The notes: generated by a model from the sequence alone, not told the origin. Positions 24,762 to 27,365 are shown, counted from the stretch's first letter. The stretch: DNA of 64,000 bases from Leptolyngbya sp. (GCA_003249105.1 QBLT01000002.1:2505-66504), one strand, 5' to 3'. Numbers and translations are program-made.

Positions 24762-25409
24762 TTAGTCTGCGATCAGAGCAATGTTAGAAAACACAAATTC
24801 CTGCTTATCGGTGTCGTCGTCAACCCCGGTTTCGATAGAGCGGCGAGAGAGAATGTAGTAGCCGCCAACCTCGGTGTATTCGTCTTCAAAATCGCTGAGG
24901 CCGCCCTTTTGCTCACCAGTTTTAGGGTCGTGATAGACCGAGTCGTAGCGGTGTGACAGGTAGCCTGAGCCAGTGTCGTGGCTGCTGTAGGTGTGAATGG
25001 TGACCACAACGCCGTGGATGTGGCGGTGCACCATCGACACTTCGTTGTCTTTGAGCTGGTAGCGATCGCCCTCAGCCTTACCGCCCATCAAGATCTCTAT
25101 CGAACCGTCGGCCAGGGTTTCGCCATAACTAAAGGTGTTGTTGCCGTGGCTGTCTTCAAACTCGCGCCGCACCCGGTGAATCGAGACCTCAAACAGCTGA
25201 CCATGCACCATTTTTTGGGCCGCCTCATCGGCAATGCCGCTCACTTCCAGCTTGAGGTCGGCGCTGACCTTGACCTGGCCGCTGTGGGTCTGGCCGTTGT
25301 GGGTAAACGTCACATCGGCGGTGTAACCGGGGAACGCGGCATCCCAGGTATAGCGATTTTCGTAGGCAGCGCGAAATAAGTCCCGTGCTGCAAGCTGAGT
25401 TCCAACCAT
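24762..25409 (-). CDS. DUF3386-family protein
   Basis: ARDLFRAAYENRYTWDAAFPGYTAD. Confidence 0.85.
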   Translation of the reverse strand: MVGTQLAARDLFRAAYENRYTWDAAFPGYTADVTFTHNGQTHSGQVKVSADLKLEVSGIADEAAQKMVHGQLFEVSIHRVRREFEDSHGNNTFSYGETLADGSIEILMGGKAEGDRYQLKDNEVSMVHRHIHGVVVTIHTYSSHDTGSGYLSHRYDSVYHDPKTGEQKGGLSDFEDEYTEVGGYYILSRRSIETGVDDDTDKQEFVFSNIALIAD

Positions 25410-25553
25410 TAAAAAATTCTCCCGGTTCATGTTTGGTGCACAAACAGCGCCCTGCCGCTGTGCTGGAGCTTCTCTAGCATAGCGATTCTGGGCTCCCCTG
25501 GGCTTGGCCTGGGCTGAAGTAGTCAGCAGGGTCAGCCATCAATTGCAAAGAAA

Positions 25554-25597
25554 TGTATTGTAGTTTACAGTGCTAACGGGGGTCGCCTCTTTAGAAT
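25554..25597 (+). promoter_or_regulatory. NtcA-activated (class II) promoter
   Basis: TGTA-TTGTAGTT-TACA (25554-25569), then 22 nt, then TAGAAT (25592-25597). Confidence 0.65.
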
Positions 25598-25602
25598 AAA
25601 AG

Positions 25603-25750
25603 ACCCATAATTCATTTAGGCTTGTGCTGCCGCATTTTGCTGGGTAGATCGGGTTCTAAAAGCTCAATTTAGCTCTAGTTTTCCACAGGCTGCTCGTGAG
25701 CCTCGGCTTTAAGGTATCTGCTAAAAAGCCTGCCTAGTCAGGGCTTTTTA
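25603..25750 (+). ncRNA. candidate nitrogen-regulated small RNA (~145 nt)
   Basis: Follows the NtcA promoter; no plus-strand ORF; ends in hairpin GCTAAAAAGCC/GGCTTTTTAGC (25720-25752). Inferred; family not recognised. Confidence 0.45.
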
Positions 25751-25819
25751 GCATAATCGCTATTGTTAAACGGTCAAAGCTGTGGGTTATCCACAGCTTT
25801 TTGGTCTGTCTGTGGATAA
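25679..25819. promoter_or_regulatory. cluster of three DnaA boxes
   Basis: TTTTCCACA 25679-87, TTATCCACA 25787-95, TGTGGATAA 25811-19. Confidence 0.55.
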
Positions 25820-25854
25820 CTTATTGTCGGTGAATGATTGGACGATCGCACCCC

Positions 25855-27291
25855 TCATCCACCGATGCTACCGGCGTACTGATCGATCGCCTTAAAGAGC
25901 TGGTTCACCTCAGCCACCGTAGTAAACGGGTTGAGCAGTACCGCCTTTAACCATCGCTGCCCCCGAAAGTTAGGCACCGACAAAAAGATCTGGTGCTGCT
26001 TCAGCAGGTAGTCCTGCAAGCTGACGTTCCAGGCATCCCACTGGGATGGCGGCAGCGTCGGAGGGCAGCCGCGAAAGCAGATCAGATTCATCTCCGGCTC
26101 GCTAGCCAATTCTAGATAGGGCCGCTGGCGCACCTGGGCGACAAAGTGAGCGCCTAGGGCATAGCTGGCCTCAATCAGTTCGGCGCAGCCCGCCTGGCCC
26201 AAATGCTGAAGGGTGAGCCACAGCTTGAGCACGTCGGCATGGCGGGTGCCCTGCACTGTCAGTTCCCCCAGGTTTACCCAATCCGGCTCACTGTTCATGT
26301 AGGGTGCTGACACTCGAAAGTGACTGTGCAGCAACCCCAGATCGCGAAAGAGCACCGAGGCACAGGTTTTAGTGACATACAGCCATTTTTGGGGGTTGAA
26401 CGTCACTGAGTCAGCCTGTTCAATGCCTGTCAGCCGCTGACGGTGCTGGGGCGAAAAGGCGATCGCCCCCCCATAGGCCGCATCCACATGGAACCATAGC
26501 CCATAGGTCTGGGCAATGCGGGCGATCGCGGGTAGCGGGTCAATGTTGCCGGTGACGGTGGTGCCCGCCGTGCCCACCACCGCAAAAGGCCGCTGCCCGC
26601 GGGCGATCGCTCCCTGAATTTTCTCTTCTAGGGCATTGGCGTCCATTTGAGCATTGGCATTCGCAGGCACCAGCACCACCCCCTCCAGCCCCAGCCCCAG
26701 CACCATCGCCGCCTTTTGAATCGAGGTGTGGGCCATTTCCGAGGCCAAGATCACCGGTGGCGGCCCCCCGGCCAACCCCTGCCGTAAACAGTCCAGCTTG
26801 ACGTTGCGAGCCACGGTCAGCGCCTGCAAATTGGCCAGGCTGCCGCCACTGGCCAGCAGCCCCCCGGCCTGCTCCCCCAGCCCAAACATTTGGGCCAGTT
26901 CTGCCAGCAGCAGCGGCTCCAGGCGCGACAGCGCGGGCGACATCTCCACACTCAGCATGTTGTTGTTCAAGGCTGCCGCCGCCCAGTCGCCCACAATCGA
27001 AGCCGTGCTGGGCAAGGGGTCCATATGGCCCATATAACCAGGGTGGGCCGGGTTCATCGACTGGGCCATCAGGTCGCCCAGGGAGGCTAACAGAGGAGCG
27101 ATCGCCGTAGGCTGAGCGGGAATACCGCTAAACTCAACATCCTTGATCGCGGGCAGAGGGGCGTGGCTAGCTGCCCCAGTGGAGTAGTCGAGAATTTGCT
27201 CGACCACCCGCTGCAAAATCTCTGCGATGGCCGCCCGATTATGGCCCTGGGGATCGATAAACGCGGTAGCAGGCAAAACCGATGGAGCCAA
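25855..27291 (-). CDS. group II PLP-dependent amino-acid decarboxylase
   Basis: [36 protein letters not shown] (PLP Lys). Probable TTG start with SD GAGG. Confidence 0.9.
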
Positions 27292-27365
27292 CGTACACCT
27301 CTTGCACGAACTATGGCTCAATTATCTCGCCAATGCTCTACCCCATGCTAGAGAAACCAGGGTTT

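Follow-up and report, generated by a model that had tools for sequence, protein, structure and literature searches.

Genomic context of the locus

The locus is an intergenic spacer of 424 nt (25431-25854) within the window, that is, the whole 64,000-nt stretch of DNA that was analysed. It is bounded on the left by a DUF3386 gene (24762-25430) and on the right by a gene encoding a PLP-dependent decarboxylase (25855-27321), the latter resembling diaminobutyrate and aspartate decarboxylases at scores under the NCBIfam cut-offs. Both genes are encoded on the minus strand, so that the first-pass annotation, which had described an NtcA-type promoter aimed into a gene-less spacer against the direction of its two neighbours, was accurate as to the setting. 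From left to right the spacer contains a putative NtcA site with a -10 hexamer, a variable non-coding segment, a DnaA box (box 1), a hairpin followed by a T-run, and an inverted pair of DnaA boxes (boxes 2 and 3), the three boxes being referred to here as the triad.

In all counts given below, the genus is Nodosilinea (cyanobacteria), which includes the genome of the window. Of the 24 species of the genus that were sampled by BLAST, five yielded the stretch at 79-84% identity, with an identical gene order in all five. The DUF3386 locus was taken from 30 species of the genus, 28 of which have the decarboxylase gene next to it on the upstream side, and a total of 44 units were compared. Identities are reported as pairwise means over 20 genomes, with the four-fold degenerate sites of DUF3386 (identity 0.60) used as the neutral reference.

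The left part of the spacer carries sequences that are associated with DUF3386, a name that gave no hit in the papers searched. The promoter block of this gene consists of a near-invariant minus-strand motif (TAGAATCGGTATGCTAGAGAAGC; 25468-25490), the window copy of which reads CAGAAT, and was regarded as a property of the neighbour, outside the unit considered here. The 5'UTR of DUF3386 (region 25431-25492, minus strand) was also found to harbour a hairpin that shows clear compensatory changes when 23 genomes are compared, and this hairpin may represent a conserved leader element. Another minus-strand promoter, TTGACC-16-TATGCT, was proposed by a consensus scan and rejected, as the alignment of relatives showed no conservation of it.

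An NtcA-type promoter of class-II geometry

The putative NtcA site, TGTA-N8-TACA (TGTATTGTAGTTTACA), was read directly at 25554-25569 of the plus strand, and is followed after 22 nt (23 nt when counted from the TAC core) by the -10 hexamer TAGAAT (25592-25597, plus strand), which was likewise read directly and is supported by the alignment of relatives. Extrapolating from the -10 hexamer, in a conserved A-rich/CCC context, transcription is predicted to start at approximately 25603-25605 on the plus strand, which would place the centre of the NtcA site at about -41.5/-42.5 relative to the start. A GTA-N8-TAC site and a -10 of the form TAN3T in this arrangement have been described for NtcA-activated promoters of class II (PMC5714215). 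The geometry reported in the first-pass annotation was present as claimed and is textbook-like in its class-II layout; the binding site, the -10 spacing, the presence of ntcA in the genome (385 bits; cut-off 245) and the regulon motif found elsewhere in the genome all conform to this class.

The 64-kb window contains a single combination of GTA-N8-TAC with TAnnnT located 21-23 nt downstream, and the 5.08-Mb genome contains 38 (both strands counted), with the full TGTA..TACA form present in only three of those 38 matches. Two of the 38 were situated upstream of nirA (ferredoxin-nitrite reductase) and glnA (type I glutamine synthetase), which are classic NtcA targets and served as positive controls. 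Given that the promoter is both rare in the genome and conserved in relatives, a chance match is ruled out. The other two full TGTA-N8-TACA sites with a -10 were found on contigs C28 (near 3183, plus strand) and C77 (near 23473, minus strand); neither has an ORF of at least 80 aa starting within 400 nt downstream, and they are therefore further candidates for NtcA-driven non-coding transcripts.

Amongst the 30 close-range loci, an exact GTA-N8-TAC was present in 20, and most of the others harboured single-mismatch forms at the same position. The -10 hexamer of close-range relatives was always TAnnAT, with the first two and the last positions kept and the middle variable, and in distant species it read TAACCT. 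The distance between the site and the -10 hexamer was 21-23 nt across relatives, and the identities of the two elements were 0.80 and 0.76, respectively. Insertions were observed on both sides of this pair: in locus L053 an inserted segment of 165 nt sets the NtcA site apart from the DUF3386 promoter, whilst in L057, L059, L062 and L066 insertions of 100-220 nt separate the promoter from box 1. The insertions of all five loci are rich in hairpins and may be small MITE-like elements. As the 21-23 nt spacing was kept despite these insertions, the NtcA site is tied to the plus-strand -10 hexamer rather than to DUF3386.

This observation bears on a different reading of the site, according to which it would serve the divergent DUF3386 gene as an upstream activator or repressor element acting from about -81, the plus-strand -10 hexamer being irrelevant. 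The palindromic site is indeed located 124 nt from the DUF3386 start codon and approximately 81 nt from the predicted start of that gene, and upstream-acting NtcA sites have been reported (PMC5714215). However, it is the plus-strand -10 hexamer that is conserved at 21-23 nt, whereas a minus-strand TAnnnT at that spacing is absent, and in L053 the inserted segment separates the site from the DUF3386 promoter. Furthermore, the orientation of the promoter is unchanged where the gene on its left is a different one (DUF4230, in the G005 group described below), and 18 of 19 distant DUF3386 genes have neither DnaA boxes nor an NtcA site upstream. A role in DUF3386 expression is thus highly improbable.

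In loci L040-L042, L044 and L048 (genomes G046, G022, G016, G020 and G047), an 8-nt tandem duplication, AATGTATT-AATGTATT, was observed directly 5' of the NtcA site, where it generates a second half-site.

A DnaA-box triad of fixed geometry

The first-pass annotation had mentioned that the proposed RNA contains a DnaA box. The 9-mer in question, TTTTCCACA (25679-25687), is the cyanobacterial DnaA-box consensus (PMC4674748), and conservation extends over a slightly longer element, GTTTTCCACAGG (25678-25689), designated box 1, which was unchanged in the 44 units except for one CAA variant and had an identity of 0.90. Beyond the proposed RNA, two further perfect DnaA boxes, box 2 (GTTATCCACAG; 25786-25796) and box 3 (CTGTGGATAAC; 25810-25820), the latter inverted relative to the former, constitute the pair GTTATCCACAG-N13-CTGTGGATAAC (25786-25820). 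The arms of this pair were invariant, with no compensatory changes, the spacing between the 11-mers was 12-13 bp, and the identity of the whole block was 0.83 with its variable spacer included.

Box 1 and box 2 were separated by 94-98 nt in 44 of 44 units. The interior of the triad (25690-25785) is hence fixed in length and variable in sequence, being largely unrelated between clades, and its folding showed neither a stability beyond expectation (mean z of -0.56) nor a bias towards one strand, the plus strand being the more stable of the two in only 27 of the 44 units. Genomes were searched with the pattern TTTTCCACAG-N95-125-TTATCCACAG-N10-16-CTGTGGATAA, using the reversed pattern as a control; of 53 genomes of the genus, 42 contained the full triad in exactly one copy, and the control returned no hits. 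The inverted pair alone was present in 38 of 39 sampled genomes of the genus and in two sister genera, and the exact 11-mer pair was absent from 394 sampled cyanobacterial genomes outside the genus. The three perfect boxes make up the best DnaA-box cluster in the genome.

In the window, box 2 sits within a 10-bp hairpin, AAAGCTGTGG / CCACAGCTTT, that is followed by TTT (25776-25803) and was seen in this genome only; it was rejected as an element of the unit, since its arms are not conserved in relatives. A second type of DnaA-box palindrome, GTTTTCCACAG-N6-CTGTGGAAAAC together with a third box, was encountered at contig C311:1772-1820 of the same genome, approximately 360 nt upstream of a sigma-70-family gene, and at G018:C1:2956924-2956973. 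Pairs of the form TTTTCCACAG-N8-CTGTGGAAAA were found in about half of the genomes of the genus.

Location of the triad relative to the probable replication origin

A single-copy cluster of three perfect boxes with fixed geometry, the best in its genome, might be taken for a replication origin or a second origin, which NtcA-driven transcription would activate or block in the manner of mioC and gidA at E. coli oriC. An oriC with only three DnaA boxes has experimental validation in Cyanothece (PMC4674748), and in G062 the interior of the triad is strongly AT-rich, though this holds for some species and not for most. Against an origin at this position, 4-6 degenerate DnaA boxes (up to one mismatch) precede dnaN by 300-500 nt in almost every one of 30 genomes inspected, with boxes counted within 400 bp and a background expectation of 0.12, and the region upstream of dnaN is the usual position of oriC in cyanobacteria (PMC4674748). 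In the genome of the window, dnaA and dnaN are encoded on other contigs, the dnaN-associated cluster being located at C188:15760-15891 (the corresponding loci of relatives are L118-L146), and the boxes of these clusters match the consensus less well than do those of the triad, all three of which are perfect. A distance of 1.4-2.3 Mb separates the triad from dnaN in complete genomes. No GC-skew switch was detected at 25.7 kb, where the profile of the window tracks gene orientation, although skew is uninformative in this genus, as twenty 20-kb samples from the one-contig relative G062 showed no replication skew. The oriC is probably located upstream of dnaN, away from the triad, and it is very unlikely that the triad itself acts as an origin.

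Coding capacity, folding and 3' end of the proposed RNA

The predicted non-coding transcript would begin with a variable 5' segment (25603-25677, plus strand), the identity of which was 0.46. Values of 0.48 for the stretch 3' of box 1, 0.57 for the hairpin that follows and 0.47 for the stretch up to box 2 were obtained in the same comparison, so that the body of the RNA evolves without conservation in excess of the neutral rate, its identity lying at or below that of the reference. There is no ATG in the spacer between 25598 and 25833, and the longest ORF within the proposed RNA comprises 16 codons, beginning with TTG and lacking a Shine-Dalgarno sequence, which agrees with the earlier estimate of about 16 codons and no plausible ORF. 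On these grounds, and in view of the near-neutral identity and the indels amongst relatives, a small-protein reading was rejected.

Both of the small hairpins that had been noted were found, AGCT-caattt-AGCT (25661-25674) within the 5' segment and AGGCT-gctcgtg-AGCCT (25687-25703) further downstream. The 3' end of the proposed RNA of approximately 145 nt had been placed at an 11-bp terminal stem with a T-run, which corresponds to the hairpin at 25720-25752; this has a 12-bp stem as predicted by RNAfold, a loop of 9 nt, and runs of A5 before and T5 after. Whilst the stem and T-run are thus present, the consensus terminator scan made no call for this hairpin, and only about a third of relatives have it, with a plus-strand hairpin and T-run in 8 of 28 and a minus-strand counterpart in 1 of 28. 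The A5 and T5 runs on either side mean that the hairpin could equally terminate the convergent decarboxylase gene, and it may be a leaky or bidirectional terminator.

Folding of the whole proposed RNA (149 nt) was no better than that of shuffled sequence (RNAfold, z = -0.74), and RNAalifold returned an empty consensus structure over 20 genomes for the plus and the minus strand alike. When restricted to the eight closest relatives the same program gave -24 kcal/mol, at a level of variation too low to be informative. A pairing of 5' GCCUGUG with box 1 was rejected as it is lost in more distant species. The Rfam comparison that had been suggested as a check of novelty yielded no match to any family, either at the gathering threshold or at E <= 10, the output being noise with no NsiR4 model amongst the matches. 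No paralogue of the RNA stretch exists in its own genome, and a multi-copy RNA family or repeat was rejected for that reason.

These results allow an appraisal of the nitrogen-starvation sRNA originally put forward, considered here as an NtcA-induced, trans-acting RNA of the NsiR kind that base-pairs with mRNAs. Such an RNA would be approximately 145 nt in length, or approximately 230 nt if it ended at the box 2/3 palindrome, with the invariant GUUUUCCACAGG as its seed and the DnaA boxes as a means of DnaA control or a roadblock. The existence of sRNAs that depend on NtcA is well established (PMC5714215, PMC8491059), and the unit resembles a gene in that it has its own conserved promoter, no ORF, a single copy and an identity that is kept as its neighbours change; the hairpin and T-run of the window and its nearest relatives are also mainly on the plus strand. 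The promoter, the gene-less target and the lack of an Rfam family all stood, but the RNA sequence itself proved to be unconstrained, and the most conserved element was the DnaA box (0.90 for box 1). The DnaA consensus, in one of its three copies, is the only invariant stretch that would be transcribed, large insertions are tolerated in the body, and the conserved seed or structure generically expected of a trans-acting sRNA was not found (identities of 0.46-0.48 against 0.60, an empty RNAalifold consensus, and z = -0.56). Moreover, an RNA function leaves the fixed-length frame of the other two boxes unexplained, and in G058, where the triad adjoins the decarboxylase gene, boxes 1 to 3 were retained even though DUF3386, the promoter and the 5' half were lost. 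A trans-acting sRNA is, on balance, less likely, though still a serious rival.

Recurrence of promoter and triad in different gene neighbourhoods

A perfect GTA-N8-TAC with a -10 hexamer aimed at box 1 was present in 24 of the 44 units, for which the chance expectation was estimated at 0.006 per unit. Approximately ten further units have a one-mismatch site, and because the chance of such a site is about 0.1 per unit, these weigh less individually. Another seven (for example G058, G062 and G014) possess the triad with no recognisable NtcA promoter, indicating that the triad is not strictly dependent on transcription from it. The distance between promoter and box 1 ranged from 50 to approximately 350 nt, so that the promoter is no part of the phased complex.

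The genes surrounding the unit differ between species. For instance, the triad is flanked by genes for a DUF4230 protein and an SDR in G005, G019, G063 and G067, and is followed by a K+ channel gene in G055 and G052, a GGDEF gene in G062, G014 and G066, and a NUDIX gene in G004 and G044. In the DUF4230 context (G005, G063 and G067), a perfect GTA-N8-TAC, a gap of 22 nt and the hexamer TAACCT were found 106 nt before box 1, and G019 and G050 have the same arrangement as G005 except for GTG. The sequence GCTTTC-TTAA preceding the -10 hexamer in these units resembles, as judged by eye, that of mid-distance members of the window's clade, which suggests homology over convergence. In G447, from a sister genus, the triad was identified with the same 107-nt offset, together with a site that has one mismatch and is located 128 nt ahead of box 1. 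Promoter and triad are accordingly a conserved single-copy unit that is independent of neighbouring genes. As the species are related, genome counts overstate the number of independent events, and the strongest independent support comes from the recurrence of the promoter-plus-triad arrangement in at least two gene neighbourhoods.

Of 15 distant units, 11 have a gene after the triad that is oriented in the same direction as the promoter, and the promoter in those units may simply be that of the gene. This raises the possibility that the NtcA promoter ancestrally drove a co-oriented gene via a DnaA-controlled leader, and that in the window's clade this gene was replaced by the decarboxylase gene, leaving a transcript that is a remnant or that acts as an antisense or convergent RNA to damp the 3' end of the decarboxylase gene in nitrogen starvation. 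The plus-strand genes of the distant units (SDR, GGDEF, K+ channel) start 50-400 nt after box 3, the central hairpin of the G005 group has no T-run after it, and the hairpin of the window is common to the 3' end of the decarboxylase gene, all of which would fit an orphaned or shared promoter-leader. It is nonetheless quite unlikely, as the promoter has been kept in about 30 species with nothing co-oriented downstream, and a hairpin with a T-run and two DnaA boxes separate it from the decarboxylase gene. The downstream gene also differs by clade, such that no single gene can be said to own the promoter.

A proposed role for NtcA-dependent transcription at the triad

Taken together, the anatomy of the unit, its conservation, its single-copy status, its independence of neighbours and the unconstrained body of its RNA are established. 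The interpretation that best accommodates them, to which we assign a probability of roughly 0.4, has NtcA-dependent transcription running into a DnaA-binding locus that is not an origin, the conserved entity being the promoter and the DnaA sites rather than a classical sRNA. The interval highlighted by the first-pass annotation would then be the promoter-proximal part of a composite Nodosilinea unit. In this scheme, which is built on sequence comparisons, the transcript, its start and 3' end, the nitrogen response and the binding of NtcA and of DnaA are all predictions.

Under nitrogen limitation, NtcA with 2-oxoglutarate would switch on the class-II promoter, which would transcribe rightward through the variable non-coding segment of approximately 75 nt. 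The transcript would cross box 1 and then the weak or leaky hairpin with its T-run, proceeding towards the inverted box pair. What matters would be that RNA polymerase meets DnaA assembled as a complex over the three boxes; transcription may remodel or displace the complex and bound DnaA may attenuate the transcript, so that the RNA of approximately 145 nt would be an attenuated product and not a seed-bearing regulator. Such a locus would work in a similar way to the read-through from the glyVXY promoter into datA, the DnaA-inactivating locus of E. coli, and would thereby link nitrogen status with DnaA status. There is as yet no settled view of what DnaA does in cyanobacteria, which counts against this interpretation, as do the units that have the triad but no NtcA promoter, the variable distance from promoter to box 1 and the co-oriented genes of the distant units. 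Cyanobacteria are also not known to have IHF, and sites for IHF or Fis are not expected in them, which counts against the likeness to datA in particular.

A more specific version can be formulated by analogy, in which the three boxes carry a rigid complex that is an analogue of datA or DARS, and NtcA-driven read-through remodels this complex with the RNA as a by-product, rendering the locus a nitrogen-gated device for the control of DnaA. We consider this version unlikely; if it were correct, the capacity for replication initiation in this lineage would be coupled directly to the 2-oxoglutarate/nitrogen signal. The coupling of replication to nutrients in cyanobacteria and the role of DnaA beyond oriC would find in the unit a concrete and testable meeting point. 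There is also a caution here for sRNA prediction, in that a promoter and a terminator may frame a stretch that is informative only as DNA-binding sites. Were a trans-acting sRNA encoded here after all, it would be a genus-specific addition to the NtcA regulon, of modest interest.

Comparison with known systems

In B. subtilis, clusters of high-affinity DnaA boxes located outside oriC near promoters titrate DnaA and regulate the adjacent promoter. The triad is similar to these clusters in having high-affinity boxes that are intergenic, outside oriC and next to a promoter. The B. subtilis clusters differ in being origin-proximal and without coupling to a nitrogen regulator, and we know of no description of a rigid long-range spacing amongst their features.

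The likeness to the NtcA-dependent sRNAs NsiR4 and NsiR7 resides in the class-II promoter near -41.5 and in a non-coding transcript that would form its own intergenic unit. NsiR4 is a short RNA with a conserved single-stranded stretch and a terminator stem-loop (PMC8491059). Compared by description, this architecture differs from that of the RNA predicted here, which would be approximately 145 nt in length with several weak hairpins and with the DnaA box alone conserved. Unlike sRNAs of the NsiR4 type, the unit has an unconstrained body, no seed other than a DnaA box, an inconsistent terminator and three DnaA boxes.

The core of the E. coli loci DARS1 and DARS2 comprises three DnaA boxes, two of which are oppositely oriented (PMC6868365). 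The triad likewise has a three-box core with an opposed pair in a non-origin, intergenic position. The DARS pair is, however, 5 bp apart with all boxes adjacent; this head-to-head spacing was not found in the triad, the pair of which is separated by 12-13 bp, with the third box 94-98 bp away.

At E. coli datA, read-through from glyVXY across a terminator/attenuator regulates the nucleoprotein complex, and DnaA binding in turn attenuates transcription (PMC10950094). The two loci are dissimilar in that datA is IHF-dependent, has another number and layout of boxes, and is read into from a growth-tied tRNA promoter rather than from one under nitrogen control, whilst the present locus is known from its sequence alone. 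As in loci of the datA and DARS type, a high-affinity box cluster outside oriC includes an opposed pair (boxes 2 and 3), and, as at datA, this non-origin cluster is situated directly downstream of a putative short-RNA unit, with a possible terminator/attenuator between them.
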